NCBI GenBank assembly: GCA_964559915.1
Contig: CAZLJP010000004.1
Coordinates: 16,336-80,335, forward strand
DNA: 64,000 nt
DNA from: an uncultured Candidatus Saccharibacteria bacterium
GTDB lineage: Bacteria > Patescibacteriota > Saccharimonadia > Saccharimonadales > JALRHH01
Direction: 5' to 3'
In this document: positions 12,019 to 50,120 of the stretch, piece by piece
Layout: each line of letters opens with the position of its first letter
How positions within the stretch are numbered: the stretch's first letter is position 1
The notes under the pieces: model-generated
Told to the model about the DNA's origin: nothing
The model's database searches: none
Seen by the model: the letters and a program-made list of their open reading frames with translations, nothing else
Position numbers and translations under genes: made by a program

Positions 12019-13083
12019 CTACCAGCCGTCGGGCTTGGAGGGTTCGTTGTCCTTTTCGGTTTCATCGTCAGAGTGAGACTCGTCAGATTCACCTTCAGCT
12101 TCAGCACCGTCGTTGCCGGAGTTGCCGTGGTCGGAATCGTCGGAACGATCCTTCTTCGGCGGCTCAGACTTCTCGGCGTCCTTGGTCGGCTCCTGCTTGT
12201 GACTGCTGACCTTGTCGTGAGTGGGGATATCGCTACCTCCACCACTGCTGGTGCTGTCGTGTTGATCTTGCTTCTTCACACAGCGACCGTCGTAGCCAAC
12301 GTGCTCGTCGGACTTGCAGTCATGACCACCGCCACCACAGTTGTGGGTGCACTTGTGGTCACGATCATGATGCTTCTTTTCCCACACCTTGTAGGGGATG
12401 GGCAGTCTGTACTGCGGATTGGCGCAAGCACCACGCAGTGCAAACAAAGAAGTCACCTCGCCACGTTCCACCTGAGCCGGCGGGACAAAGATCAGCGCGA
12501 TGCTGCTCTTGTTGTCCACCTTCTCGCGATCAGCCCGCTGAGGTCCGTTGTAGTAGTAGGTGTTACCCTCCCACACGACGGATTCATTGAACTGAACCGC
12601 AACCCAGTTGTCCTCGTCGAGGAGCTGTGTCTTGGTGGTCTTCGCGTCGTCCTCGCTGGTCTGCTGGATGGCAGCCTTCAGGGCGGCGCGAGCCTGCGGT
12701 GTGTCACTGTCGAGGAACTCAACAGCGTCGGCGGGAGTACGAATCTCTTCGCCATACACACCAGTGCCGGGGTCGTTGGTGTTGTCCACAAACTCATCGA
12801 ACGTGAGGTCCGATTCGTTGTGTCCAACCTGCTCGAGCCCCTGCTTGGCGACGTCCACGACGACCTTGTGCTTTGCAGCAGTGGCAGCCGTGTTGACATC
12901 GGCTTTGGCCGTGTCTTCGTAGCTGGCATCGTTCAAGAAGGCACCCAAACCCATGAGGGCAAGAGCCAGAACGATGATGCCAACGATGATTACCGTCGGG
13001 CGCCAACGAGGTGAAGAAAGCCGAGCGCGGATGCGCTGGCCTCGAGTCATGACGACGGTGTCGTCATTGTTGTTGGTACTCAT
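12019..13083 (-). CDS. hypothetical single-pass membrane protein with Cys/His cluster and acidic tail, high-GC gene
   Basis: 354-aa ORF. N-terminal TM (VIIVGIIVLALALMGLGAF). HHDRDHKCTHNCGGGGHDCKSDEH cluster. G/C-ending codons dominate, and long ORFs appear in several frames, as expected for high GC. Confidence 0.6.
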   Translation of the reverse strand: MSTNNNDDTVVMTRGQRIRARLSSPRWRPTVIIVGIIVLALALMGLGAFLNDASYEDTAKADVNTAATAAKHKVVVDVAKQGLEQVGHNESDLTFDEFVDNTNDPGTGVYGEEIRTPADAVEFLDSDTPQARAALKAAIQQTSEDDAKTTKTQLLDEDNWVAVQFNESVVWEGNTYYYNGPQRADREKVDNKSSIALIFVPPAQVERGEVTSLFALRGACANPQYRLPIPYKVWEKKHHDRDHKCTHNCGGGGHDCKSDEHVGYDGRCVKKQDQHDSTSSGGGSDIPTHDKVSSHKQEPTKDAEKSEPPKKDRSDDSDHGNSGNDGAEAEGESDESHSDDETEKDNEPSKPDGW

Positions 13084-13872
13084 AGTTTTCCCCTTTCTTG
13101 GGAAAAGTAGTTTCGGTAGCGATTTGCTTCCGAAATGCCAGATTTCCCGTTAGGGTGGCGTCAGTGGCCACACGTATGTGAACACAGATACCACCCTAGC
13201 TTGAAAGGAGATAAAAATTGAATAGGTTACAGTATATGTATCATTCTGCATGGGAATAACCGGAGACCCCGAAAGGGCTCAACAGATACTGCAACCAATG
13301 CAGACCGTCCAGTACTAGCGTGTAGCGAAAGGAGTACTCATCCCCGAACACCCATCTGACTACAAAATGCCTCTGGCGCGCTAATTTGCCGTTTTGCTTC
13401 GCAGCATATACAGATATGCTTTGTCGCAATAACACCAAATTATCATCACCATATACATTTTTCGTCTCCAGATAAGGTCCAGGGATGAATACTAGCCACC
13501 TAATACCAATCAGCCTGCATTGCTTGCATCCCATAACAGATATATGAACTGTAATGATTTGACTTGTTAACGTACCCGATATGTATGGATTCCGGTTGGA
13601 CCCTGTAAGGCGCAAAAAACCAACAATATTGGCAAAAAGCCGCTATCGTCAGTCAATATTCCACCTCTAAAGTTCCTCCCGTAACGGGGTGTTCCCACAC
13701 CCACACATAAGGATGCTCTAAATATATCACAAAAAGCCATAAATGTCAATATATTTAGCAACATTTGTCAAATTAGCACAAGCGGCATCAACAGAGGCAG
13801 TCACGCTTCACTTACTACCTATAGTGCTACAGCTTAGGAATAGTTTCTGTATGTTTTTATACACTACGTAAA

Positions 13873-15303
13873 CTATTGCTCGGGCTGGCTGACAGGCAGT
13901 TTAAGCTTTTCCTTAGAGAAGCTAAAACCAAAGGTACTGCCCTTGCCCACCGTGCTCTTAAAGATAATTGCACCACCCTGTGCCGCAATCACCTTCTTGG
14001 CCATAAACAGGCCCAGCCCAGTACCGTCTGGACGCGCCTTTTGTGCATTCTTAGCCCGATAGAACTTACCAAACAGGTGGTGCTGCTCATCCTTTGGTAT
14101 ACCAATACCATTGTCATTAACTGTGAATCTGACTTCTTTAGCAGTTTCTTCCAGTTCCAGCTCAATCTTGCCACCCGATGGCGTGTAATAGATAGCATTA
14201 TCAGAGAAATTCATAATCACCTGACGAATCTTGGTCTCGTCCATCATCAGCATAGGGAATTTCTTGGGCTTTTTGTAAGTCAGGGTCAGATTACGACCAG
14301 CCGCGCTTGCCCTGAGCTGCTCAACCTCGCTCTCTATAACATCCGCCAGATTGGTTGGTTTAGCTTCAATAATGAACTTACCGGTACGCAAACGGGATAA
14401 ATTTAAAAGGTCAGATATCAAATACACCATACGCTGACTGCTGGCAAATGATTGTTCCAATAGCTTCTTCTGGGTAGAATTAATCTCGCCGGCGTCACCC
14501 TCTAGCACCATGCTCACATAGCCCTTTACACTTGTCAGCGGTGTACGCAGCTGATGCGATGCCATACTAATAAACTCGTCCTTGGTCTCATCCAGAGTCT
14601 TGAGCTTCTGGTTAGATAGCTCAAGCTGATGCAAAACGCGTTGATTTTCTTCAAACAGCAGTTTGTTATCCAGTGCCACGCCAATACTCTCGCCCAGACG
14701 ATTCAACAATGCGGTATCAGATGCCGTAACTTGCTCTGGTGGCTGAGTAAAACCTACTACCAGTAACCCCACTAAAGTCCGACGGGCATGTAGCTTCACT
14801 ATATATACAGAGCCGAGACCAATGAATTGGCGGAGCGTATGCACATCTTCAGCCGTACGATTTACTAGCTCACCTATCTGATGGTCGCTCAGACCATCTA
14901 GGCTAAATAACTTGGCACTCTGAAAATTATCAAACCATTCGTTTGCTATCTCTACATGTAGGGGCTGTTCGAACACTGCCGCCACGTCTGCCTGACCTTC
15001 TGAACCACTACTCCAACCGCTCAGCTTCAAATCCTTACGAGACTGCGTTAGTAACCCAACAAATGGATACCCAGTGGCCTGCGTAATCGCCTCAGCAATA
15101 TGCTCGCATACCATATTCAGGGATACTTGCGATTCCAAAGCTACCGAATCTATTACACTCAGTAACGACAATGTGCGGTTAGTATCGTGCAGCTCCTTGT
15201 TGCGAGCATACATCTGCTGCGATACTTCTTGTAGTGTCGCCTGTAGTGTCCGTTTACGAACAAAACCTTTGGTTGTGTCTTTGATTTTGGGAGTATCTTC
15301 CAC
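13873..15303 (-). CDS. cytoplasmic sensor histidine kinase (GAF-like N-terminal domain, HisKA, HATPase_c)
   Basis: H-box SMASHQLRTPLTSVKGY, N-box FSDNAIYYT, G-boxes DNGIGIP and GTGLGL. No TM segment. Confidence 0.88.
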   Translation of the reverse strand: MEDTPKIKDTTKGFVRKRTLQATLQEVSQQMYARNKELHDTNRTLSLLSVIDSVALESQVSLNMVCEHIAEAITQATGYPFVGLLTQSRKDLKLSGWSSGSEGQADVAAVFEQPLHVEIANEWFDNFQSAKLFSLDGLSDHQIGELVNRTAEDVHTLRQFIGLGSVYIVKLHARRTLVGLLVVGFTQPPEQVTASDTALLNRLGESIGVALDNKLLFEENQRVLHQLELSNQKLKTLDETKDEFISMASHQLRTPLTSVKGYVSMVLEGDAGEINSTQKKLLEQSFASSQRMVYLISDLLNLSRLRTGKFIIEAKPTNLADVIESEVEQLRASAAGRNLTLTYKKPKKFPMLMMDETKIRQVIMNFSDNAIYYTPSGGKIELELEETAKEVRFTVNDNGIGIPKDEQHHLFGKFYRAKNAQKARPDGTGLGLFMAKKVIAAQGGAIIFKSTVGKGSTFGFSFSKEKLKLPVSQPEQ

Positions 15304-15365
15304 CTAATAATCCTTACGCTTGTATATCAGTATACAGGGCCTCTGGGCGTATAGATAGATAAGGC

Positions 15366-15785
15366 TTAAATCTTCAGTGAAGATGGCTGCTGGTCAGCGG
15401 GTACCTGACTTAGCAAGTTAGCGACTGCTTCTCTACAGGTTTCTACAGCAATTTGACCAAAAAGTTCTTTATATTGGGCGACCAAATCATCTATAGCAAT
15501 TTGTGGGCTGCCTTCAATGTCCACTTCATGCTGCGGCCAGTTTATCTTAAGCTCACCTACTAGCTTAGCCTGGTCAACAGCAATTGGGCCAATAATAGCT
15601 TCTTGTTGTTCAATAATTCTCTCGGCAATCTGGTCAAATATACCATCAAGCGGGTTTGTTGTGGGAGCAGGAGCTGAATCAGCTACCTGGGGCTGGGTTA
15701 CTACAGTAGGAGTTATTGGATTTTCGCTAGGAGTAGTAGGCATCTGTACTGGCTGCTGACTATTCTGTGAATCTTCGCCTTCCAT
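15366..15785 (-). CDS. hypothetical protein (Pro/Gln/Thr-rich N-terminus)
   Basis: 139-aa ORF. ATGA overlap with the upstream membrane-protein gene suggests co-translation. Confidence 0.45.
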   Translation of the reverse strand: MEGEDSQNSQQPVQMPTTPSENPITPTVVTQPQVADSAPAPTTNPLDGIFDQIAERIIEQQEAIIGPIAVDQAKLVGELKINWPQHEVDIEGSPQIAIDDLVAQYKELFGQIAVETCREAVANLLSQVPADQQPSSLKI

Positions 15786-16612
15786 TATGACTCCTCCTTT
15801 ACTGTCTTCTGCTGTAGCTTCTTATAAATATTCAGGAATTGGATTAGCGCAGTAGCCATGACGAAATAAGATATTAGGTAAAGTAAATCGGCGTATTGCC
15901 CAGCAAGATATTTATCTCTACTACTTTCGTAGACAAAATTAAAGTCTGCAACATATTGTACGAAAAGTGCCAAAATCACTAACAAAATACCTCGTTTCAT
16001 CACACCTCCAAGTAACCTACGAGAGAGGAATAATGCAATTAACCCCAGAGAGATATATATTGCTTGACCCATCGGATATCCAAAATCAAGGAATACGGTT
16101 AAAGGGTGGCTAGTATCATATTCGTGGTTATGTAAAAAGACCGCATAAGATGCGACCAAGAGCAAAGCTGGTATTAAGAATGCTACTGCCTTGTATACAC
16201 CCTTCTTTAGTGAAAAGCCTACGCCCGCAGTACGGCTAAGTAGCAAAGCTGCGATAATATACAGTACAACGCTACCAAAATAAGCAACATCGCCCCATGA
16301 AGGGTATGGAATTTGAATTTTCGCACCATATATATAGTAGGTATATATGAGTTGCCCGGCTTCTTGTGCTAATAATCCAAGGGAGAAAAACATCAATGCC
16401 CGACCGAGCAGTGTTTTGAAGCCACCCCATTTAACGGCCGCAACAAGACCAATAACTGCACCTATCAACGCAACAACACCATAGGTGCCGCCAAACCACT
16501 GCACAGCCACGCCTTGGTTCTCTACAACATGTTGAAAAGTGAACCACCACGCTAGAAATCCCAAAAAGACTGCTGTTACGGCGATTTGTAATTTATTTTT
16601 TAGAAAGCTCAT
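15785..16612 (-). CDS. polytopic integral membrane protein
   Basis: About 8 hydrophobic segments across 275 aa. No recognisable family. Confidence 0.6.
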   Translation of the reverse strand: MSFLKNKLQIAVTAVFLGFLAWWFTFQHVVENQGVAVQWFGGTYGVVALIGAVIGLVAAVKWGGFKTLLGRALMFFSLGLLAQEAGQLIYTYYIYGAKIQIPYPSWGDVAYFGSVVLYIIAALLLSRTAGVGFSLKKGVYKAVAFLIPALLLVASYAVFLHNHEYDTSHPLTVFLDFGYPMGQAIYISLGLIALFLSRRLLGGVMKRGILLVILALFVQYVADFNFVYESSRDKYLAGQYADLLYLISYFVMATALIQFLNIYKKLQQKTVKEES

Positions 16613-16709
16613 TTACCTTTATTATCCTTAGGCTATTATATATGTCAAGCCTTAAGCATGATAGCCACTATTCTTTAGCATCAAAGGGTCGTGTATTATA
16701 CTTCTTGGT

Positions 16710-17645
16710 ATGTTTCCTACCTTTCCAAAATTTGAACCCTTGAAAATGACCCATAAGGACCATTATTCTAAGCTTATCGGTGAATATCCTGCGTATTCAG
16801 ATATTTCCTTCAGCACGTTGCAAATATGGTGGAATCTAAGTGATCAACTCCAGGTCTCCACCCTAAACAAAAACATTATCATTCACTATTTGTTGCCATT
16901 TGATGAGGAAAATTCCGGTTATTCCATAGTCGGTCAATATGAGCTAGACGAAAGCATACAGTCCATTTTTGACTATCAAGTTGCAAATAACCTGCCTGCA
17001 CGCCTGGTTCACGTACCTGAGTTTGCTATCAGCAATATTAAGAATAAACAAAATCTAAAAATAACCGAGGAACTTGATTACAACGAGTACCTACTAGACA
17101 GCAAGTTGCTCGCCACACTTGAAGGTCATGATTTGGGAAGAATACGCCGAAAAGTTGCAAGATTTTTACGTGAAACTGAAGGCATTGAAGTAAAGATTGA
17201 AAGCATGGACCTATCTGTAGCGAAAAATACCGAGACGCTTATGGAGAGTATAGTGTCCTGGGAAGAAGCAAGAGAAGCTCGGAATGACCCAGACCACACA
17301 GAGCACGATGCTATCCGAAAAACGCTAGGATACGCCAGCGATTTAGACACTAGAAACTTATGCATCTATCTAGATAGTGAACTACATGGAATCATACTCT
17401 ATGACCTGTCGTTTGATGGTAAATCCTACATTATTCATCACCTGAAAGTTAACTACAGTACCCCTTTTATTTTTGATTATGCCACCCAGGTTATTGCTGA
17501 ACATGCCACTAAAGACGAAATCCCATTAATAAACATGGAGATGGATTTGGGAATCGAGAATCTTCGTTATCACAAAATGAACCTCAAACCCGTTGATTTT
17601 TATAGAAAATATACCGTGGAACCACATGATTCAAATAGTAAATAA
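16710..17645 (+). CDS. DUF2156-like protein (lysyl-phosphatidylglycerol synthase C-terminal-domain fold)
   Basis: The N-terminal pattern F.PL....HY..L.GEYP.YSDISFSTLQIWWN resembles DUF2156 family starts. AT-rich gene. Confidence 0.5.
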   Translation: MFPTFPKFEPLKMTHKDHYSKLIGEYPAYSDISFSTLQIWWNLSDQLQVSTLNKNIIIHYLLPFDEENSGYSIVGQYELDESIQSIFDYQVANNLPARLVHVPEFAISNIKNKQNLKITEELDYNEYLLDSKLLATLEGHDLGRIRRKVARFLRETEGIEVKIESMDLSVAKNTETLMESIVSWEEAREARNDPDHTEHDAIRKTLGYASDLDTRNLCIYLDSELHGIILYDLSFDGKSYIIHHLKVNYSTPFIFDYATQVIAEHATKDEIPLINMEMDLGIENLRYHKMNLKPVDFYRKYTVEPHDSNSK

Positions 17646-17709
17646 TCTAACATGAAACCTCTTCTAACTTTCATTATGTGAAATAATGTTATAGTATTGG
17701 AAATAACTG

Positions 17710-18198
17710 ATGAAAATAAATATGACAGCCGGCACGGGCGTTGGGCCCACAGAATTATCAGCGTTTGACCATGCGCTGGTAAACGCAGGTGTTGCCAATT
17801 TTAACCTTATATACCTAAGCTCTGTACTCCCACCGAATAGTGATGTTCATGTAGGCAATCACAAAGTTAGCCCTACGGGTAACTGGGGTGATCGTTTGTA
17901 CGTAGTGGTGGCCCAGAAACGTACCAGCCAACGTAACCAAGAGGTATGGGCGGGTATTGGCTGGATGCAAGATCCAGAAACGAAAAAAGGCCTCCTCGTA
18001 GAGCACGAAGGCCACACCGAAGATGAAGTCCGAGCTGACATAAAAAACAGTCTTGAGGCACTTGCTCAAAACCGCGGCATGAAGTTTGGGCCAATCAATA
18101 TGCACGTAGTTGGCAAAAAATGCGTATCATTGCCTGTCTGTGCGCTTGTTGTGGCAGTATTCGAATCTGCAGAGTGGATTACCAACCAACAATCTTAG
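17710..18198 (+). CDS. pdaD: pyruvoyl-dependent arginine decarboxylase
   Basis: GTGVGPTELSAFDHALVNAGVANFNLIYLSSVLPP matches the PvlArgDC signature, including the Ser-Ser self-cleavage site. Length is 162 aa. Confidence 0.85.
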   Translation: MKINMTAGTGVGPTELSAFDHALVNAGVANFNLIYLSSVLPPNSDVHVGNHKVSPTGNWGDRLYVVVAQKRTSQRNQEVWAGIGWMQDPETKKGLLVEHEGHTEDEVRADIKNSLEALAQNRGMKFGPINMHVVGKKCVSLPVCALVVAVFESAEWITNQQS

Positions 18199-18204
18199 GG
18201 TTGC

Positions 18205-19155
18205 CTATCCCTCGATAATATTTGTGGCTGCCTTGTCTCTTTGAGTCTTCTGTTCGTGAAACTTTGCTATATTCCAACCTGAATTTGCCAAACCTAGCGC
18301 TATAGAACCCAGTAAAGCAATGCTTGCGGGGTTGTCGGGCGTGGTGAGCGTTTCAAACGTACTAGCTATAGCATCCATTGGAGGACGTAATATGGGAACG
18401 CCACGATATATCTCACGGACTCCTTCTGCAGTACCAACCCAGGTGGTCGCTATGAGTGCAGCAAGGTATGCATTGCGCTTGAGACTTGGGGGATTACCTG
18501 CTAATGTTTCCTGCAAAATAACACTACTCGTGCCAATTGCGTTTACTTTACCGGTATCCACGACAAGAGTACCCAAAACTCGTGCGGCACGTGTTTTACG
18601 GGCGGCTAGTTTTTCACCTAGTTTTTCAAACTTTTCGCTTATATAACCCAGTGCGGTATATGGTGCATTAGCAATCTGAGACAAAGCCTTTCGTGGCCGA
18701 GACATTTTAGAATAGCGCTCTTCCGTATATTCTTCCATATCAGCGAAGGCACCCTTTAATTTACGGCTACGGGTTATTGCTGCACCAAGCAGAATGCTCT
18801 CTAACCCCACGGTTAAGCTCACTATCCCATCTTCAATTAATCGTTCTTTGGCAGGAGAATCAACATGAACTATCTTTTGTGATTCTTGCAAAACTTTGAA
18901 AGTGGCTGCATCTGATAGTGCTAAGTCGGCTACAGGAATAGTACATACAGCCGCCATGACAGCACGGCCAGCAAATTGACGTGTCTTGAGAAATCGAGGG
19001 CTAGATTCGGCGCGGTGTTTTGCGCGTTCTTCACGGTCAAGAATTGGCTGCTCAACCACGGCAGGGAGAGATTGGATTTCACTATGTATATCCTCAGGCT
19101 GTAATGACTGAATATTTACATCTGTTGGATTTGGTTGTGATATGGGTGAATCCAT
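18205..19155 (-). CDS. hypothetical protein
   Basis: 316-aa ORF with amphipathic and weakly hydrophobic segments. No recognisable motif. Confidence 0.45.
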   Translation of the reverse strand: MDSPISQPNPTDVNIQSLQPEDIHSEIQSLPAVVEQPILDREERAKHRAESSPRFLKTRQFAGRAVMAAVCTIPVADLALSDAATFKVLQESQKIVHVDSPAKERLIEDGIVSLTVGLESILLGAAITRSRKLKGAFADMEEYTEERYSKMSRPRKALSQIANAPYTALGYISEKFEKLGEKLAARKTRAARVLGTLVVDTGKVNAIGTSSVILQETLAGNPPSLKRNAYLAALIATTWVGTAEGVREIYRGVPILRPPMDAIASTFETLTTPDNPASIALLGSIALGLANSGWNIAKFHEQKTQRDKAATNIIEG

Positions 19156-19207
19156 AATGAAAGTATTATAGCATAAACTTGATAAATAAGCAATACCTTT
19201 TTACTGA

Positions 19208-19819
19208 TTAGTCGTCGAAGAGTGCAGAATATTCAAGCATTTCTGATTTGGTTGGTGTCTTTTGGTCTCCAGAAACAGCCTTACCCTTTCCGAGCGGCAT
19301 ACTTCCTGTAGCCACATTGGTCGGTTTCATGGCTAGGCCCAAACCATATTTTGCGCGCAATTGGTTCATTTGAGTAAAATCTTCTATTGGGAACAAAAAT
19401 GGTCTACCAAGTTTAGATTGATACCACTGAGTGCCAAATAGCTGCTTCTCTCCTTTGAGAATCCTAACTCTATCTGTCAAACTCGGTATCGCCTCGGGGT
19501 GGACTGAGTGCCCCTCCTTGTGAGTGTCCTCAAAGACAGAAAGGATAGATTGCATAACGGAAAAATGAGCATGAAGACCAATGACTGATATTGCTTGAGA
19601 CCCGTCAAGGCCAACATTATCTATACTTGGCTCTTTTATTTCCTGGAGAATCTGGTACACTCTTTGCGTTCTCTGATAACCATTAAACTTTAGGTCTTTT
19701 TCTCGATTCTTAGCCTGTTTTGTAGTAAGCGAACTCAGCTCCCTAGAGAATGATATTATCTCACTTTGGTCTTCGGCGAGTATATCAATTAATTCTTGCC
19801 GTAGCTGAGGATACTTCAT
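19208..19819 (-). CDS. hypothetical protein (possibly DUF6624-like)
   Basis: 203-aa ORF. GLDGSQAISVIGLHAHF...LTDRVRILKGEKQLFGTQW loosely resembles the DUF6624 pattern. Confidence 0.4.
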   Translation of the reverse strand: MKYPQLRQELIDILAEDQSEIISFSRELSSLTTKQAKNREKDLKFNGYQRTQRVYQILQEIKEPSIDNVGLDGSQAISVIGLHAHFSVMQSILSVFEDTHKEGHSVHPEAIPSLTDRVRILKGEKQLFGTQWYQSKLGRPFLFPIEDFTQMNQLRAKYGLGLAMKPTNVATGSMPLGKGKAVSGDQKTPTKSEMLEYSALFDD

Positions 19820-20060
19820 AATTTATTATTATAGAGCAGCTTGGGGTGACTTAGAGCGCAGTGTAGAATTGGACTGGCTGCTCATTCGCAAGCGAATCCA
19901 GGAATTGCTCAGTTTGCAGGATATCAGGCAAAACATTCTGGGTTCTTGGGTCGACAAAGCCTACTACCGACCATCCTCCAAACCCCAGAGTTACTAGAAG
20001 CCCTCACCCAAGAAAAACCCCATTTTCTACACCCAACTGGGTAAGTAAGGTTAATCCTGT

Positions 20061-20672
20061 CTATACCAGGCCCACTACTACCACTGCTGCTGAGCTATTC
20101 TTGGTAATTTCTGCCAATGAAAATTCTTGGCCTGGATCTGAGCCGCCATACAGATTACCTTTGTATTTATTGGGTAAGATAAAGCCTCTTTCTAGTTCCA
20201 CACTTTCGTGGCTTGCTATTTTTTCTAACACTTTGGCTATGTCTTCGTTTGGTGCACGTTGGATAGTGTCATTGGATGAAAGATCGGGGAACATAGTTGA
20301 AGATACCGATGCAAATAATCTCATCACTGCAGGGTTGCGCGTAATACCACACACCGTTTTAGCACTTGTGTGGGTTATTGCTTCTTCTAGCATATCGTGT
20401 CCGATACCACGGCCGTGATAGCTGGGGTGTACGGCTATACCGTTTACGTATAACGAGTGATCGTCTGAGATTCTGTATAGACCAAAGGCCACCGCCTCTA
20501 ATCCAGAAAGGGCTATCTGGGCTATATCTGATGATTTAAAATTAGCATTCACTGCTTCTCCGAAATCCTGAATAGACCTACCGAATGCGCTGACACCGAT
20601 TTCCTGACACTGTGGGTATCTATCGAGTGCATAAGAAGGGTTATCATAGAACTCTATTTCAATATTTGCCAT
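20061..20672 (-). CDS. GNAT-family N-acetyltransferase
   Basis: Acetyl-CoA motif A: IAVHPSYHGRGIGHDMLEEAI. Confidence 0.75.
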   Translation of the reverse strand: MANIEIEFYDNPSYALDRYPQCQEIGVSAFGRSIQDFGEAVNANFKSSDIAQIALSGLEAVAFGLYRISDDHSLYVNGIAVHPSYHGRGIGHDMLEEAITHTSAKTVCGITRNPAVMRLFASVSSTMFPDLSSNDTIQRAPNEDIAKVLEKIASHESVELERGFILPNKYKGNLYGGSDPGQEFSLAEITKNSSAAVVVVGLV

Positions 20673-34547: not shown

Positions 34548-34679
34548 AGTGTTCTCCTTTCAAATAAAAAACACCCGTGTTTATAAAACCCAGGTGCATT
34601 TTTCCAAGGACCCAACCAACCATCCATACCGTCTAAATTATGCTGATATTATAATACTACAAATAGATTATGTCAATGG

Positions 34680-34828
34680 TGGTACACCCGGCAAGAGACG
34701 CACATCTGTAGCCATGCTCGATGCAAGCATCTGCGCGTGGCCTGGATGACCGAACTTTAGCTCGAATCTTGTCTCGATAAATCGAGCAGAAATTAAAACC
34801 ACCCATAAAGGGTGGCTTGAATTTCTCC
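34680..34828 (-). repeat. tRNA-Arg-associated 3'-end-duplication module (terminator, conserved structured core 34699-34770, 17-nt copy of tRNA 3' end 34680-34696)
   Basis: TGGTACACCCGGCAAGA occurs at 34680-34696 and inside the tRNA at 34829-34845. The core is shared with modules at 46964-47025 and 49884-49957. The terminator AAGCCACCC-TTTAT-GGGTGGTTTTAATTT lies at 34790-34818. Confidence 0.75.
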
Positions 34829-41188: not shown

Positions 41189-41390
41189 TGTACAGAAATC
41201 TATAGCATACTACTTTGCAAAACATCCTTGCATACTGTGAAGTAAAGTTGGATAATGCGTAATAGAACAAATATCTACAGACAAGCGACTAGGGGGCGGA
41301 GTGAGCAAAACCTGGCGATTGCTTTGGATAAACTCTCTTACTAAAACCTAATTACTTGCCTAATATACGATTACAGTGAAGGAGGTCGTT

Positions 41391-44300
41391 ATGAGAAAGT
41401 TTAGTTTTCGTACCATCAAACAAAGACTTGGTATGAGTCTTATTGCCGTACTATTTAGTGCGACGCAAATTTTGTTTCCAGTATTAGCCAGTAGCACTGT
41501 CTATGCAGCCGGGGCCACTATAAACTCGAGTAATCATCAGGGTAAAAATACTGATGGTACCTGGACGAGTGGCAATACCACTCTCTATAAGGAAGGTGAT
41601 TACGCTCACTTCCGCTTTACTCTCACGGCCAATCAAGCCGCTCAGGGCTCCATGCTTGTAGTATTCTCCAACGCAGCAAACGGCTGTGCTCAATTCTTCA
41701 CAAACTACTTTAGCATTGACTCCGTAACACCGGCTGGTACTGCAACTGTCACTCCAGCGGGTGCCCCAGTTAGCGTAGCGGGTGGTGGGGGTTCTTCTGA
41801 TTGGCAGCAGCAGCTTAACCTTAACTTCAGCGCCGGCGGTAATGTAACAGTCGAGTATGTTCTACAATTCTCGTTCACTGCTGGCGACTGTAATGGCTCA
41901 AGCACCCACAGTGCTCTTGCTGCAGCCCAGAACGCTGGTGACTACAAGAATACCGGAGCACAAACAATTCCTCTGCCCGGGTCTGGTATTCTGTACGCTC
42001 CAAGCATAACAATCAACAAGACTGTTAGCGGCGGAAGTGCAGTTCCTAGTGACTTTAGCTTTACCGTTTCACCTGCTATTGGCGGGCAAACCGTCTTCCA
42101 TATCCCCAGTGGGCAAACATCCGTAACCATCCCGAACATTAATCCAGATGGCGTCTTTACTATTACCGAAAGTGGTCCAGCTGGCTACACAATGATAAGT
42201 GGTAGCGGTACAAACTGTGTTGTTACCTCGCTCGCAGATGGCAAGATGACAGCCACCGTGACCGCTGGTCGACCTGCAGTAGATGCCATTTGTAACTTTG
42301 GCAATCAGCAACAAACGGGTAGCATCAAAGTCATTAAAGATGTTGTGAATGACAATGGCGGCAACAAAACGTACGCTGACTTCACATTCACCCTTAATGG
42401 CACCACTTATAACTTCGACGCTACCACGTCACCTGATGGAGCAAAAACCGTTACTCTACCAGTCGGTGGACCCTACAGTGTAGTCGAGCCAGAGGCCGAC
42501 ACTATGGGATATGCAACAGGCTACAACAACTGCGCGAACCTGGTAGTAGTGGCCGGACAAACCCAAACGTGTACCATTACCAATAATGACGTTGCACCAT
42601 CATTAACTTTGAATAAGATTGTTAACAATGCTTTTGGTGGCGACAATCCTGAGAGTGACTGGACGCTTACAGCTAACGGTGGAAATGCCGGTGTACTATC
42701 TGGCCCAGGCGCCAATACAAACACAGATGTTGTCAGTGGCGCTGGCTTCAAAGCTGGCACCTATGCCCTCAGTGAAAATGGCCCATCAGGCTACAGCGCC
42801 AGCAGCTGGACATGTACTGGTACCGGTACACAGAATGGCAGCAATATTACGCTTGCTGCTGGTCAATCTGCTGTATGTACCATCACGAACACTGCACAGC
42901 AGCCAACACTCACTATTGTCAAAAATGTCACCAATGCCTTCGGTGGCACACTAGTTGCAAGTGATTTTGGACTAAAGGTCAATAATACTAGTCTCAGCTT
43001 TATAGCTGGTGCTCCGGGTACAACTACCGCCTACACCGCCACACCTAGTGTCAATGCCAACACCTCCTATACACTCAGTGAAATTGATGTTGCCGGATAT
43101 TCAGAGGGCAACTGGAACTGTACAGGCGGCACCTCTGGAGTGTTTAGCGGCACCAGTGTCACCCTTGACGAGGGAGAAAACGTCACCTGTACTATTACCA
43201 ACAGTGACATAGCGCCAATTATCAATATCATAAAGCTAGCGCTTAACCCTTATGGTACCGCACTCTTACCTGATGCCTTTAGCCTAACGCTCGACGGCCA
43301 ACCAGTATCTAGTGGCGTAAACAATCCTGTTACTGCTGGGTTACACATTGTTGGAGAAACGCAGCAACCTGGCTACCAGTTTACTAGCTTTGCTGGCCAG
43401 AACTGTACAGTCGATCAGCAAGGTACCTGGACGGCCTTAGGTGTCATTGGGCAGACAACCACTTGTACCATTACCAACACCGCAATCCAACCAAAGTTGA
43501 TTATCAAAAAGCACGTTGTTAACGACAACGGCGGTGGCAAGTCAGCTGGCGACTTCAATATGACCGTTAGTGGGAACGCTGTTAGTGACACGAACTTCCC
43601 AGGCGAAGAAGCTGGTACGACGGTCTATCTCAGCGAAGGCACCTACAGTGTTGACGAACTTACCGACGGTGCATACGCAAAGACGCTCAGTGAAGACTGT
43701 AGTGGCACAATCAAGATTGGCGAGACCAAGACCTGTACAATCACGAATGATGACAAGCCAGGTACACTAATCGTTAACAAGGCTGTCAAGGGCGGCGACA
43801 GCGAAGCCGAAGACTTTAGTTTCAAGATTGATGGTAGTGACACAGATTATAGCTTTGTAAACGGCCAGACAACTACTGAGGGTAGCGCACCCGTCGAGCT
43901 TAACGCTGGTACATATTCTGTCACAGAGAACGACGCCTACGGCTACGACAAAGACGACAGTGACTGTAAGAACGTTCAGGTCAAGAATGGCGATGAAGCC
44001 AGCTGTACCATCACCAATACTGCACAGCGTAAGATTACTATCTGTCACGCCACTGCCGCAGTAAAGAACCCGTATGTAACCCTATCTGTACCCATCTCAG
44101 CCGTTGACGGCACTGCTGGCAACCAAGCAGGTAAAGGTGATCATTACGGCGAACACCAGGGTCCAATCTTCGACCCCGCAGTCAACCACAACGGTGACAA
44201 CTGGGGAGATATCATCCCACCGGTGCCGCCATACCACAATGGCCTTAACTGGGACGAGGACGGCCAAGCAGCCTACGAAAATGACTGTGTTCCTCCTGCT

Positions 44301-45293
44301 AAAGTAATTGTTACCAAGTACAACGACCTCAACCGTAACGACGTACAAGATCAGGATGAACCCACCCTACCCGACTGGGAGTTCAACCTAACCGACGGTC
44401 AGTGTGACCAAGAGTTCAATATCGAGGCGTTCCTATCAAAAGCCCTCAATGAGGCAACTTGTTACGACAAAACTCAGACCACCGGCCAAGACGGCACAAC
44501 TACTTTCAAAGGTGTCGTACTAGACAACACCTACCAGTTGTCAGAAAATATCCCCGCAGATAGTAACTGGCATCTCGGTAATATCAGCTGTGATGGCGAC
44601 CAAGCAGGTCTTGATGGTAACATCTTCTACCTCGACGACATCCAGCCTGGTGTTACTATCGACTGTACTGTTGGCAACTACCGTGACGCCGTACTCAATA
44701 TTGCTAAGTCAAATAATCGTCCTAACCCAACTACCGTAGGCGACACTGTCACCTACACTCTTACCGTAACTGTCCCAGAAGACAGTGGCATGGTGTTCGA
44801 TACTGAAGTAACCGATCTGCCACCAGAAGGTTTCGAGTATGTAACCGGCAGCTGGACAGCAGATTCAAGTGTACGTGGTGACATCAAGGGCGAACTGACT
44901 CCTGAGCCAACCTACGGTTCTCCGGGTATCTGGCTACTCCGAAACCTTGTCCCAGGAGAGATTGTCACTCTCACCTACAAGGCATTAATCAAATCAAGCG
45001 TTAGTGATGGCAAATACCCAGATATCGCATTTGCGCGCGGTTGTAGCACAAACCTCGGCTGTGTACCTCAGGGTAGTGGCAATGTCATCTTTGCCAATAT
45101 CAGCACTGGTAGCAATACGCCATTTGTCGGCACTACCGTTGCCATAACCTCACCTGCGGTCATACCTGCCAATATTATCCACTACGTTAATACTGGCGCA
45201 TCAAATGTATGGCTCAACACGATTGCAGCAATTACTCTTGCGGGAGCAGCCCTGATGACACTTGTTCGCCGTGAGCAGAAAGGAACAAAGTAA
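41391..45293 (+). CDS. giant modular surface adhesin-like protein with C-terminal YVNTGA sorting signal
   Basis: AAGGAGG RBS before the ATG at 41391. Signal peptide (VLASSTVYA|AG). Seven roughly 90-104-aa modules ending in CTITN. SdrD-B/DUF11-like distal domains. C-terminus is YVNTGASNVWLNTIAAITLAGAALMTLVRREQKGTK. Confidence 0.85.
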   Translation: MRKFSFRTIKQRLGMSLIAVLFSATQILFPVLASSTVYAAGATINSSNHQGKNTDGTWTSGNTTLYKEGDYAHFRFTLTANQAAQGSMLVVFSNAANGCAQFFTNYFSIDSVTPAGTATVTPAGAPVSVAGGGGSSDWQQQLNLNFSAGGNVTVEYVLQFSFTAGDCNGSSTHSALAAAQNAGDYKNTGAQTIPLPGSGILYAPSITINKTVSGGSAVPSDFSFTVSPAIGGQTVFHIPSGQTSVTIPNINPDGVFTITESGPAGYTMISGSGTNCVVTSLADGKMTATVTAGRPAVDAICNFGNQQQTGSIKVIKDVVNDNGGNKTYADFTFTLNGTTYNFDATTSPDGAKTVTLPVGGPYSVVEPEADTMGYATGYNNCANLVVVAGQTQTCTITNNDVAPSLTLNKIVNNAFGGDNPESDWTLTANGGNAGVLSGPGANTNTDVVSGAGFKAGTYALSENGPSGYSASSWTCTGTGTQNGSNITLAAGQSAVCTITNTAQQPTLTIVKNVTNAFGGTLVASDFGLKVNNTSLSFIAGAPGTTTAYTATPSVNANTSYTLSEIDVAGYSEGNWNCTGGTSGVFSGTSVTLDEGENVTCTITNSDIAPIINIIKLALNPYGTALLPDAFSLTLDGQPVSSGVNNPVTAGLHIVGETQQPGYQFTSFAGQNCTVDQQGTWTALGVIGQTTTCTITNTAIQPKLIIKKHVVNDNGGGKSAGDFNMTVSGNAVSDTNFPGEEAGTTVYLSEGTYSVDELTDGAYAKTLSEDCSGTIKIGETKTCTITNDDKPGTLIVNKAVKGGDSEAEDFSFKIDGSDTDYSFVNGQTTTEGSAPVELNAGTYSVTENDAYGYDKDDSDCKNVQVKNGDEASCTITNTAQRKITICHATAAVKNPYVTLSVPISAVDGTAGNQAGKGDHYGEHQGPIFDPAVNHNGDNWGDIIPPVPPYHNGLNWDEDGQAAYENDCVPPAKVIVTKYNDLNRNDVQDQDEPTLPDWEFNLTDGQCDQEFNIEAFLSKALNEATCYDKTQTTGQDGTTTFKGVVLDNTYQLSENIPADSNWHLGNISCDGDQAGLDGNIFYLDDIQPGVTIDCTVGNYRDAVLNIAKSNNRPNPTTVGDTVTYTLTVTVPEDSGMVFDTEVTDLPPEGFEYVTGSWTADSSVRGDIKGELTPEPTYGSPGIWLLRNLVPGEIVTLTYKALIKSSVSDGKYPDIAFARGCSTNLGCVPQGSGNVIFANISTGSNTPFVGTTVAITSPAVIPANIIHYVNTGASNVWLNTIAAITLAGAALMTLVRREQKGTK
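41990..44020 (+). repeat. tandem intragenic domain repeats (7 modules, period about 270-312 nt)
   Basis: The Cys-x-I/F-T/G-N module ends recur at about 42291, 42571, 42876, 43188, 43464, 43734 and 44004. Each is followed by a [IL]x[IV]xK...NxxGG start. Confidence 0.7.
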
Positions 45294-45964: not shown

Positions 45965-45982
45965 AAAAACTTTACTTTAAAT

Positions 45983-46012
45983 AAAAAGCCGGTCATCAGA
46001 CCGGCTTTTTAT
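45983..46012. terminator. bidirectional intrinsic terminator
   Basis: AAAAAGCCGGTC-ATCA-GACCGGCTTTTTATTT. Confidence 0.75.
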
Positions 46013-46192
46013 TTGGGGCGAACGATGGGGATTGGCCACATTCTGCAGCCCCAAAACTTCGCTCATGGCAACATAGTTGCCAGAGGAAGATTTTCTTGCA
46101 AACAGCCACAGGCTGTTTTCACCCACGACCTTAGGGTGGGTTCGATACACATGTGCCAAATAATAAGTCCCACAAAAGTGGGACTTATTATT
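46009..46192 (-). repeat. tRNA-His-associated 3'-end-duplication module
   Basis: 26 nt (TTATTTGGGGCGAACGATGGGGATTG) at 46009-46034 equals 46188-46213. 11 nt (ACCCACGACCT) at 46121-46131 equals tRNA 46215-46225. An 86-nt insert at 46035-46120 sits at the T-loop position of the copy. The hairpin AATAATAAGTCCCAC-TTTT-GTGGGACTTATTATT directly follows the tRNA. Confidence 0.7.
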
Positions 46193-46270
46193 TGGGGCGA
46201 ACGATGGGGATTGAACCCACGACCTCCGGAACCACAACCCGGCGCTCTAACCAACTGAGCTACATTCGCC
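46193..46270 (-). tRNA. tRNA-His (anticodon GTG) with encoded G-1 and CCA
   Basis: G-1 plus GCGAATG acceptor, anticodon arm CCGGG-TTGTGGT-TCCGG, T-arm GTGGG-TTCAATC-CCCAT, C73, CCA. Confidence 0.88.
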
Positions 46271-46325: not shown

Positions 46326-46853
46326 TTATATCTGTTGGTAGTATTCTGATGATAGTAGTGCGTCTACTGCATCTGGTATATCTGATTTAGCCGGAACGCC
46401 AGACAGAATTTGAGCTTTTACTTCTTGTGGGTTAATCCAGCTAGCAGAAACAAAATCTTCTGGGTTAAACTGTGGTGTTTCATTGCTTCGATATGCGTAT
46501 AACATAGTGTAGTAACGAACATCGTCACGCCTGAACTTCTTGATAGAAACTAAGTCGGCAGGGCTAATTGTAATATTAATTTCTTCTTCGGCTTCTCGTA
46601 CAGCTGCGTCTAGATAATCTTCACCTGAATCAACGTGACCACCTACACTGAAGTCTAAACCGTTAGGCGCGATTGTCTTATCTGCCGTACGTTTAGGTAT
46701 CCAGAGTTGGCCTTGGTCGTTGATGATAAGTATGTTGGAGGCACGGATATATCCCAGTTTATCTGCTATTAATTTGCCGTAGTCTGCACGCAAAATAGTA
46801 CCGATTACGGCATCATTCTCGTCTGTCAAATCTAATAATTCTTCTTGGTGCAT
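46326..46853 (-). CDS. NUDIX hydrolase
   Basis: Nudix box GGHVDSGEDYLDAAVREAEEEINI. The start codon lies 9 nt after the tRNA-Arg(TCT) 3' end. Confidence 0.8.
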   Translation of the reverse strand: MHQEELLDLTDENDAVIGTILRADYGKLIADKLGYIRASNILIINDQGQLWIPKRTADKTIAPNGLDFSVGGHVDSGEDYLDAAVREAEEEINITISPADLVSIKKFRRDDVRYYTMLYAYRSNETPQFNPEDFVSASWINPQEVKAQILSGVPAKSDIPDAVDALLSSEYYQQI

Positions 46854-46939: not shown

Positions 46940-47106
46940 ATTGGTGCGGGTGCGGAGAATATAGATATAATCTTGCGGCGTGCTCGGTGCAAGCACCTGT
47001 GCGCGTCCTCGATTATCGAACTCTCGCTCGCTTTGGCTCGCTGACCGAGTTCAATCTCAGTCAATCAAACCAATTTCTAACTCTTTGCAAGCAAAGAATC
47101 AGAAAT
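46940..47106 (-). repeat. tRNA-Gly-associated 3'-end-duplication module (core 46964-47025)
   Basis: 21 nt (ATTGGTGCGGGTGCGGAGAAT) at 46940-46960 equals 47105-47125. The core is related to the Arg and Pro modules. The copy abuts the 5' end of tRNA-Arg(TCT). Confidence 0.75.
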
Positions 47107-47181
47107 TGGTGCGGGTGCGGAGAATCGAACTCCGATCTCGAGTTTGGAAAACTCATATACTAGCCGTTGTACTACACCCGC
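47107..47181 (-). tRNA. tRNA-Gly (anticodon TCC), CCA encoded
   Basis: GCGGGTG/CACCCGC acceptor, anticodon arm TGAGT-TTTCCAA-ACTCG, T-arm CGGAG-TTCGATT-CTCCG, then ACCA. Confidence 0.9.
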
Positions 47182-49866: not shown

Positions 49867-50043
49867 AGAGCACGAAAGGACAATGCACATCTACGGCCAT
49901 GCTCGAAGTAAACTTCTGTGCCTGGCCTTGATGACCGAACCTTCGACCTACAATCTTTTTCACTAGCGAAAAATCTTGGGTCGAAGGTTCGAGGACTGAG
50001 CACTGACCAAACAAAAAGCCCATCTTTCGATGGACTTTTTGTT
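49867..50043 (-). repeat. tRNA-Pro-associated module (terminator 50013-50040, inverted T-arm copies, core 49884-49957, diverged 3' copy)
   Basis: CGAACCTTCGACCT at 49936-49949 equals tRNA 50063-50076. GAAAGGAC at 49874-49881 equals 50054-50061. An opposite-orientation copy GGTCGAAGGTTCGAG lies at 49979-49993. The core is near-identical to the Arg module. Confidence 0.7.
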
Positions 50044-50120
50044 TGGTCGGGGTGAAAGGACTCGAACCTTCGACCTGACGGTCCCAAACCGTCCGCGCTA
50101 GCCAACTGCGCCACACCCCG
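50044..50120 (-). tRNA. tRNA-Pro (anticodon TGG), CCA encoded
   Basis: CGGGGTG/CACCCCG acceptor, anticodon arm GACGG-TTTGGGA-CCGTC, T-arm GAAGG-TTCGAGT-CCTTT, then ACCA. Confidence 0.9.

Follow-up and report, generated by a model that had tools for sequence, protein, structure and literature searches.

Hairpin-only modules behind tRNA genes of Candidatus Saccharibacteria as putative target-mimicking integrative elements

Genomic islands and prophages with a tyrosine integrase target tRNA genes and are said to cross over in the T-loop, as Williams reportedly set out in 2002 in Nucleic Acids Res. Such islands take the 3' part of a tRNA gene as target, are bordered by a repeat running from the T-loop to the 3' end, restore the tRNA, accrete in tandem and leave displaced 3'-end copies that decay. 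Other described elements have no recombination gene of their own: cis-mobilisable elements (CIMEs) and similar integrase-less derivatives of integrative elements carry att-type flanking repeats and use the enzyme of another element, while REPIN/RAYT units and the PATEs derived from IS200/IS605 are multi-copy, non-autonomous, hairpin-only sequences of ~100-200 nt that are mobilised in trans on single-stranded DNA (ssDNA) and insert beside a short fixed motif. Saccharibacteria and other bacteria of the candidate phyla radiation have tiny genomes with few recognisable mobile elements, and their gene gain is poorly understood. Here we analyse 64,000 nucleotides of contig CAZLJP010000004.1 (the window, meaning the whole stretch), whose organism is a member of Candidatus Saccharibacteria (TM7), with the focus on a 175-nt module that directly follows the gene for tRNA-Pro(TGG). 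We put the probability at about 0.5 that this feature is one of a family of miniature, non-autonomous tRNA-targeting integrative modules in Candidatus Saccharibacteria, whose hairpins would act as signals for an enzyme encoded elsewhere.

The module shares with the islands the target, the repeat, the restored tRNA, the tandem accretion and the decay of displaced copies. Its direct repeat reaches the tRNA 3' end and reconstitutes the tRNA (17/18 positions in the orthologous Pro module of L038), and identical sites are occupied in some relatives and empty in others (Gly, His, Pro and Arg(TCT) sites are empty in L033, L037, L038 and L039; L numbers such as L002, L015 or L033 label the comparison loci and W_Gly the window's tRNA-Gly module). 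Unlike the islands, it measures only ~150-200 bp, contains neither an integrase nor other genes and consists of covarying hairpins, one of them built from target sequence; arm-type repeats are not recognisable in the modules. CIMEs differ from it as kilobase-sized deletion derivatives without a conserved hairpin architecture. REPINs and PATEs, with which the module has size, copy number and a fixed motif (here TTCG) in common, carry related hairpins at their two ends and neither duplicate their target nor show specificity for tRNA, whereas the left hairpin of the module is an unconserved terminator and a target repeat of 17-21 nt is present. No gene for a Y1 HUH transposase (TnpA/RAYT) was found in the 64 kb of the window. 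An IS608-like geometry was considered on the basis of a left nick ~19 nt from a hairpin but rejected, as the left hairpins are unconserved and the length of the right linker ranges from 4 to about 35 nt across the modules.

ARAGORN places all seven of the window's tRNA genes on the minus strand, which is thus the tRNA sense strand and the strand of the window's module features given below. In the family, non-coding modules of ~150-200 bp follow a common order: tRNA, terminator-type hairpin, hairpin A, hairpin B, a short linker and a second copy of the tRNA 3' end from position 58 onwards. At the locus under study, an intact tRNA-Pro(TGG) (50044-50120; ARAGORN; Rfam tRNA, 64.4 bits) contains the insertion point at T-loop position 57/58, so that its last ~19 nt, from A58 to CCA, represent the upstream copy of the direct repeat. 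The terminator-type hairpin (50005-50048) abuts the CCA end, pairs with it and ends in a T-tract; it is an inverted repeat with 20-nt arms that are 95% complementary, and is also predicted by folding. A preliminary description made from the letters alone had listed a terminator, two T-arm copies, a core and a repeat of the T-stem 3' strand behind this tRNA, and all of them are found where it placed them. The inverted copy of variable loop, T-stem and T-loop (49979-49993) is complementary to 50061-50075 at 15/15 positions, and the direct copy (49936-49949) is identical to 50063-50076 over 14/14 nt, with a 29-nt spacer between them that holds a 6-bp stem of its own. The hairpin of 13 bp that these copies had been proposed to form is borne out by the fold, which contains 13 uninterrupted pairs. 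This is hairpin A (49936-49991; alternatively described by 23-nt arms at 83%), whose outer stem consists of the inverted and direct copy of the variable-loop/T-stem 5' strand plus TTCG, whose inner stem is TTTTTC/GAAAAA, and whose fold reaches z = -7.1 with the 13-bp stem. Hairpin B, the conserved core of ~50 nt (49886-49935), is defined by pair counts and alignment and scores 72.6 bits with our covariance model CM R1. It is followed by the 4-nt linker CATT and a shortened copy of the tRNA 3' end (together 49874-49885, from sequence comparison), in which GTCCTTTC at 49874-49881 repeats 50054-50061, a tRNA stretch that begins in the T-loop. Behind it GTGCTCT replaces ACCCCGA, as the preliminary description had seen for the acceptor strand, and the sequence beyond is unrelated.

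The core alignment 49885-49943 is 81% identical to a copy behind tRNA-Arg(TCG) (34700-34758), and the copy behind tRNA-Gly (46966-47024) is 69% identical to this Arg(TCG) core. The core pattern has two exact matches in the window against 0.00 expected and GGTTCGNNNATCNAGG three against 0.22 expected. Folded as ssDNA, the Pro module gives three consecutive hairpins with -52.5 kcal/mol and z = -11.8 relative to dinucleotide shuffles. Since matches of 14 and 15 nt fall inside 130 nt and the core is common to two other tRNA flanks, the layout at tRNA-Pro cannot be explained by chance.

For the host range, a 22-base pattern derived from the three window cores was searched in one genome each of 185,579 species. 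It gave nine matches, seven of them in Candidatus Saccharibacteria/Saccharimonadales and two in high-GC coding sequence. Six of the seven are located directly 3' of a tRNA (Lys, Glu twice, Trp twice, Thr), and the seventh, L007, sits at the edge of its locus with a tandem copy upstream. A pattern scan of metagenomes contributed 14 more real loci, and CM R1, built on 24 cores, detected additional copies. In total, ~40 copies occur behind 13 tRNA isoacceptors, namely Pro(TGG), Gly(TCC), Arg(TCG), Arg(TCT), Arg(CCT), His, Lys(TTT), Glu(CTC), Glu(TTC), Trp, Thr(CGT), Leu(CAA) and Asp, and all real matches in the genome collection belong to Saccharibacteria. Pattern matches in L001, L009, L010, L012, L020, L022, L024, L028 and L029 lie in high-GC coding sequence and were discarded as chance. 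Relatives of the window were obtained via homologues of the gene adjoining tRNA-Pro, and the tRNA order Pro ... Gly-Arg(TCT)-His is kept in them. Within the sample chosen without regard to module presence (window, L033, L035, L037, L038, L039), 12 of 28 tRNA genes (about 40%) bear a module. An Rfam scan of the whole window at gathering thresholds reported tRNAs only, and a permissive scan of the Pro module (E <= 10) nothing credible. Two pattern scans of viral contigs yielded zero matches and one false positive within coding sequence, and BLAST of the Gly module against GenBank phages and PLSDB plasmids returned nothing relevant. A full-text search of the literature found no description of such modules, which does not prove its absence. 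The module is best regarded as a miniature, hairpin-only, target-mimicking tRNA integrative module.

Both hairpins show strong signs of being maintained as structures. Hairpin B comprises the outer stem NATC/GATN and, beyond an internal loop, the helix GGCCA/TGGCC (or GGaCG/CGCC). A C.A mismatch and GC/GC come next, then the conserved internal loop RCA/GA and finally the top stem, which varies and often has a top loop of the G(CTTG)C type. In the 24 copies ascertained by the pattern, 84.7% of cells are paired against 25-38% with slid partners, and the top helix, on which the pattern placed no constraint, is paired to 100% with compensatory changes at 4/5 pairs. A further set of 11 copies, nine of which were detected by the covariance model only, has changes on both sides at 15 of 18 pairs; over both sets 84-85% of cells are paired (slid, 25-40%), and the internal loops are invariant. 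Hairpin A is located 3 nt ahead of hairpin B throughout the family. Its stem is the T-stem 5' strand of the cognate tRNA plus TTCG, paired to its complement and closed by (C/T)GAAC...GTTCG with at least 6 bp in 17/24 modules, and its interior holds a bulge of 2-3 nt and a variable stem of 4-5 bp. The modules thus contain two structurally constrained hairpins, with hairpin A matched to the target tRNA. By eye, hairpin B does not fit the consensus features of a K-turn, group II intron domain V, hammerhead or twister. The preliminary description had regarded the core as the conserved unit. This is right insofar as the core recurs at 13 isoacceptors and its hairpin covaries; the unit is larger, however, as hairpin A with its compensated upper stem belongs to it.

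The inverted copy upstream of hairpin A often extends further and covers the T-stem 3' strand or all of the acceptor strand (W_Gly, L026, L018), and can therefore pair with the downstream repeat as well. Together, the extended copy and the repeat would form a three-way junction from which hairpin B emerges exactly at position 57/58. The modules also show a strand bias: the motif AGCGA(A/G) is found 21 times in 1,032 nt of sense-strand sequence, compared with one occurrence on the antisense strand, and GNA loops are present in 14 of 23 triloop hairpins of the sense strand against 0.44 expected, several of them as literal GCGAAGC. Minihairpins of the d(GNA) type such as GCGAAGC are exceptionally stable as DNA, resist nucleases and are found at the origins of ssDNA phages (PMC13037366, PMC3201870). 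The sense strand of the modules is the lagging-strand template. A role as a DNA-uptake sequence was rejected for AAGCGAAC, which lacks genome-wide enrichment.

Several lines of evidence show that the modules are inserted DNA and not segmental duplications, since there are syntenic empty sites, tandem copies and gene-carrying arrays. In the window and in L015, a module of ~165 nt separates tRNA-Gly from tRNA-Arg(TCT), which are spaced by 167 nt in the window and by 1-37 nt at the empty sites of L033, L038 and L039, and the downstream repeat of the Gly module occupies the original position of the tRNA 3' end relative to tRNA-Arg. The tRNA-His site is empty in L033 and L037 and the tRNA-Pro site in L037, while the tRNA-Arg(TCT) site is filled in L038 only and empty in the other syntenic loci compared. 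The modules of Arg(TCG), Gly and His each close in a perfect repeat of 17-21 nt that starts at A58 in the T-loop, the Pro module in one of 8 nt, and all four tRNAs are intact. The insertion can be described as having occurred between G57 and A58 with a replacement 3' end or after the tRNA with duplication of this segment, and under either description the tRNA remains intact. These comparisons show recurrent, site-specific insertion of non-coding DNA at a fixed T-loop position of many tRNAs, with the tRNA preserved in each case.

The preliminary description had named a recent segmental duplication as the finding that would overturn separate insertions. The resemblance between the Arg, Gly and Pro modules is limited to ~60 nt with unrelated flanks, and together with the empty sites in syntenic relatives this shows the copies to be separate insertions and rules such a duplication out. 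A local replication artefact, for example by template switching at the terminator palindrome and without any mobility, could account for the direct-inverted-direct order of the copies, which resembles an inverted triplication, and for the inverted copy that spans the whole acceptor strand in W_Gly and L026. It is largely refuted by a core and spacer motifs that do not stem from tRNA and are nevertheless common to different tRNAs and genomes, by the unrelated flanks and by sites that are empty or filled with identical boundaries each time, which leaves this explanation next to no chance.

Tandem module copies occur in L005 and L007, and the terminator hairpin is absent from the second copy in L005. 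More complex arrays carry genes. In L038 (18253-19410), tRNA-Arg(TCG) is followed by an open reading frame (ORF) for a small membrane protein, TGTACCA plus a terminator, a relic module, a 3'-end copy, a cupin ORF, an intact module, another 3'-end copy and a terminator; the 3'-end copy behind the relic module represents a tRNA allele different from the resident gene, namely that of the window. In the Asp array of L019 (8980-10900), a gene for a 93-aa GIY-YIG nuclease (Pfam, 7e-16) and a 275-aa ORF lie between two Asp-type modules, and the Arg(CCT) unit of the same locus encloses a 123-aa ORF. The GIY-YIG gene is the sole nuclease-like gene close to a module, and a motif scan of the loci brought up no second copy. 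The L019 array also contains what by eye, from the translation, appears to be a C-terminal fragment of an IS1595-type transposase, followed by a RelE/ParE-like pair. A supposed cassette swap downstream of the Lys module (L002 versus L021) was rejected as merely a fast-evolving gene.

Tandem accretion and decay of displaced copies, along with the tRNA 3' target, the T-loop crossover and the direct repeat, are classic for integrase-borne islands, and the total size of a module is near that of a typical attP. We therefore considered that the modules are ordinary scars, consisting of attL/attR and arm remnants of deleted tyrosine-integrase prophages or genomic islands in tRNA genes. Random deletions would not yield the same architecture and length in ~40 copies at 13 tRNAs, covariation of the stems is unexpected for arm-type sites that are bound as duplex, the core is absent from the phages and plasmids scanned, and none of the cargo-bearing versions (L019, L035, L038) includes an integrase. 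Hence, we regard scars as a very unlikely origin.

The comparison of the tRNA-Pro locus among related genomes, which the preliminary description had suggested, revealed Pro modules in the window, L038, L039 and L035 that are alignable over their whole length and therefore orthologous, besides the empty site in L037. All three hairpins are preserved in these four modules via 19 compensated base pairs, with compensatory changes that include the terminator stem and the inner stem of hairpin A. The 3'-end copy reads GTCCTTTCACCCCAACCA in L038 (17/18), GTCCTTTATCCCACGCCA in L035 (15/18) and GCCCTTTCACCCC in L039 (12/13). Because these orthologues retain the copy, the missing acceptor copy of the window is a later, lineage-specific loss, and the gradient formerly proposed as a general property, with T-arm and core kept and the acceptor copy lost, does not hold. 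Neither is the core always retained most strongly, as the Pro sites of L015 and L033 contain other module variants with partly decayed cores. Across the family, the downstream repeat has decayed in the window, L002, L004 and L033 and is retained in L038 and L035; this copy is redundant and decays, while the copy inside the tRNA is under selection. The tRNA-Pro genes of L015 (9791-9866), L033 (2235-2310) and L039 (8094-8169) have the T-loop TTTGAGT, with a T at the near-universal C56, and the T-arm copies of their modules bear the same T. This match at position 56 suggests gene conversion between tRNA-Pro and module.

The compensatory upkeep in the four Pro modules, and likewise between L002 and L021, is also what would be expected of a domesticated element whose hairpins have a cellular role, either at the RNA level through co-transcription with the tRNA or as structured DNA, insertion being only the historical route. 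Possible roles are a termination, processing or insulator unit of tRNA operons or a decoy for factors that bind the 3' half of tRNAs. A terminator-type hairpin comes with every module, top loops of the G(CTTG)C type are common, and expression of tRNA-Arg(TCT) requires read-through of the Gly module. On the other hand, the modules are patchy among close relatives, where the same tRNA can be empty, filled or decayed, which argues that they are dispensable; the tandem copies and arrays have a selfish appearance, GNA triloops are characteristic of DNA rather than RNA (PMC13037366), and none matches an Rfam family. Taken together, a host function appears rather doubtful to us as the full explanation.

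Modules are, moreover, mosaic: in L014 and L023, the right halves are identical save for a fully swapped top stem, whereas the left halves are unrelated. Such mosaicism would fit passive hitch-hiking on natural transformation, with the tRNA gene and the repeated 3' end as RecA homology arms and the hairpins stabilising or priming the incoming ssDNA. Natural competence and recombination of linear DNA have been described for Saccharibacteria (PMC10633639), genes for RecA, RecX and type IV pili are present in the window, the modules contain nuclease-resistant GNA minihairpins, and the whole tRNA-Arg(TCG) allele of L038 differs from the displaced 3' copy, as after allele replacement. Hitch-hiking leaves unexplained, however, why the modules spread to 13 tRNAs with a tailored hairpin A, why the junction is constantly at T-loop position 57/58 and why hairpin B is conserved, and RecA would have a right arm of just 17-21 nt, which is very short. 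We hence see it as distinctly unlikely.

For the integrative reading, we propose that the hairpins may be cis-acting signals for recombination or transposition by an enzyme encoded elsewhere, and that they would act as folded single strands, most likely as tRNA-sense ssDNA, in a manner similar to integron attC or CTX-phage attP. Hairpin B could represent the common element recognised by the protein, and specificity for a given tRNA could come from hairpin A as a mimic of the left target half. Folded ssDNA is favoured because the covariation argues for intrastrand pairing, GNA/GCGAAGC minihairpins are characteristic of DNA, the sense strand serves as template for the lagging strand, and the hairpin that reproduces a duplex half-site recalls CTX-phage attP, just as stacked hairpin-ended units recall integron cassettes. 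With the latter, the modules share small non-autonomous units, an imperfect hairpin that is conserved by structure more than by sequence, in which certain unpaired bases are retained and the terminal stem varies, arrays at a single fixed site that combine empty units with units carrying an ORF, and a strand-specific fold. They differ by the tRNA T-loop as acceptor, by two hairpins of which one is target-specific and by the long target repeat; arrays begin at a tRNA gene, and neither intI nor attI nor a cassette promoter was seen in the window or any locus. In the closure (A)GCGAAC ... GTTCG(A/G)N of hairpin A, the AAC/GTT of the attC R''/R' sites (RYYYAAC ... GTTRRRY) is present, but the flanking purine/pyrimidine pattern differs. 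IMEX of the CTX-phage type, which exploit the host XerCD, resemble the modules in that a single-stranded hairpin reproduces a duplex target and the element lacks its own recombinase. The hairpin A stem is the duplex form of the cognate T-stem 5' strand plus TTCG, with ssDNA hinted at by the GNA loops only. Unlike IMEX, the modules target a tRNA and not dif, have no similarity to Xer sites and no phage genes, and mimic only the left half-site.

The tRNA-matching segments might instead act at the transcript level as guides, comparable to the IS110 bridge RNA or seekRNA or to the omega-RNA of the IS605 TnpB. A module provides sense and antisense copies of the left side of the target and, directly behind a conserved scaffold on the 3' side, a sense copy of 17-21 nt from the target's right side, and the target-matching parts vary with the tRNA while the scaffold is constant. 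The scaffold would be followed by a guide of ~20 nt, corresponding to the downstream 3'-end copy, with TTCGA as adjacent motif. In contrast to IS110/IS1111 elements, the target-matching parts pair with each other in one stem and lie outside the internal loops, which are invariant, and no ORF is present. Furthermore, the putative guide decays while the hairpins persist, and the full target is regenerated at an occupied locus, so that a nuclease guide would target itself. No gene for DEDD, TnpB or IscB was seen in the window, and guide-based targeting is in our opinion highly improbable.

Several observations weigh against the integrative reading. No recombinase, transposase or integrase ORF is present in the 64-kb window or adjoining any module (translations were read and unclear ORFs searched with Pfam), which makes the trans-acting enzyme purely hypothetical, and neither an excised form nor a circle junction was seen. 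The window's tRNA-Arg(TCT) has no promoter of its own, so transcription passes through the Gly module; a sense RNA of this module must therefore exist, and an RNA role is possible. The terminator comparisons that bear on which repeat copy is borne by the element point both ways, and wobble pairs (9 G.T versus 19 A.C) leave the strand assignment ambiguous. The divergence of the Pro orthologues is deep, with about 57% protein identity of the neighbouring gene, and the structure is still preserved; such compensatory change in place points to a host-level function or gene conversion between copies, as a dead insertion would not show it. Natural transformability of the hosts means that homologous recombination on conserved tRNA sequence could spread modules without a dedicated enzyme. 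Finally, most loci were ascertained with a window-derived pattern, which biases the conservation estimates, and the set found by the covariance model only offsets this bias in part.

If the modules are cis-signals of an unrecognised insertion system, this would explain tRNA clusters as insertion hot spots, extend the range of site-specific elements by a minimal member that carries its own target mimic, and could offer a compact, retargetable insertion signal in a group of organisms that has become genetically tractable only recently. A more far-reaching and tentative idea, which we think improbable in its full form, is a programmable hairpin-only element. It would comprise a two-hairpin cassette of ~110 nt with its specificity in the stem of hairpin A, rewritable for the T-arm of any tRNA, would be inserted as folded ssDNA at T-loop position 57/58 by an enzyme of the host or another unlinked one so far without a link to transposition, and would form the 3' boundary of integrase-less gene cassettes stacked behind tRNA genes, comparable to a "tRNA-anchored integron" in reduced genomes. 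Even under mundane readings, the modules cause pseudo-hits of tRNA 3' fragments in annotation, place terminators in tRNA operons and may be a source of gene conversion in the T-loops of tRNAs.

Besides the Pro module, the window contains three sister modules. The one behind tRNA-Gly(TCC) (46940-47106; repeats; CM R1, 83.8 bits) is placed inside the former Gly-Arg(TCT) operon and consists of the hairpin after CCA (47069-47110), hairpin A (47017-47053), hairpin B (46967-47016) and a perfect 3'-end repeat of 19 nt (46942-46960). The module behind tRNA-Arg(TCG) (34680-34828; repeats; CM R1, 72.6 bits) has its terminator at 34789-34825, the T-arm copies at 34751-34771, hairpin B at 34701-34750 and a perfect 17-nt repeat at 34680-34696. 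Behind tRNA-His, a divergent module (45979-46192), recognised by its repeats and of the same type as in L015, includes a first terminator (46156-46195), hairpin A (46121-46144), two additional hairpins (46101-46117 and 46066-46082), a perfect 21-nt repeat (46014-46034) and a second terminator (45979-46014); CM R1 gives no match to it. No module was found behind the window's tRNA-Glu, tRNA-Lys and tRNA-Arg(TCT). Across the loci, three or more types of module occur at tRNA-His: L035 has the canonical core, the window (46036-46155) and L015 (2440-2560) have the divergent three-hairpin type, and L039 (13019-13200) has a third type in which the 3' end is copied twice, each time in part. CM R1 therefore does not capture the full breadth of the superfamily. 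Directly after the downstream repeat of the Arg(TCG) module, there is a perfect sigma-70-type promoter (TTGACA, 17 nt, TATAAT; window 34640-34680, minus strand), and comparable -10 boxes follow the repeats in L002, L008 and L021, which places these modules just upstream of the promoter of the next gene.

Some further sites may represent degenerate modules. In L017 (1900-1990, minus strand), the "tRNA" upstream of the module is not called by ARAGORN, holds ATTAGGTTC twice and is degenerate at its 3' end, while an intact Glu-type 3' end with a terminator forms the downstream repeat. A possible relic in L035 (19498-19540) is the terminator of tRNA-Arg(TCT), which holds GGTTCGGTCATAAGGC, by hand count ~15/17 like the core start, and another one follows tRNA-His in L038 (13150-13190), where AAAGTTCGTGCATCAAGC...GGGCACC resembles an Arg-type remnant.

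The Gly-Arg(TCT)-His tRNA cluster is a general insertion hot spot. In the window, a NUDIX gene (46326-46853, minus strand) lies between tRNA-Arg(TCT) and tRNA-His; only ~50 nt separate these two tRNA genes in L033 (5255-5309) and L037. L035 has an Exo_endo_phos gene (19561-20325) at the same place and a 6.5-kb island (12870-19421) between Gly and Arg, and in L037 a LOR gene (12748-13332) follows tRNA-Gly; no integrase was found in the hot-spot insertions of the window, L033, L035 and L037. Upstream of the real tRNA-Arg(TCT) gene of L015, a partial duplicate of its 5' part (3000-3090, minus strand) is broken by unrelated sequence, and this is a different kind of tRNA-linked rearrangement. Elsewhere in the window, a gene at 41376-45293 (plus strand) encodes a surface protein of 1305 aa with internal repeats (SpaA-type domains in the L037 homologue), which is followed by a secreted protein of 223 aa and flanked by sortase genes.

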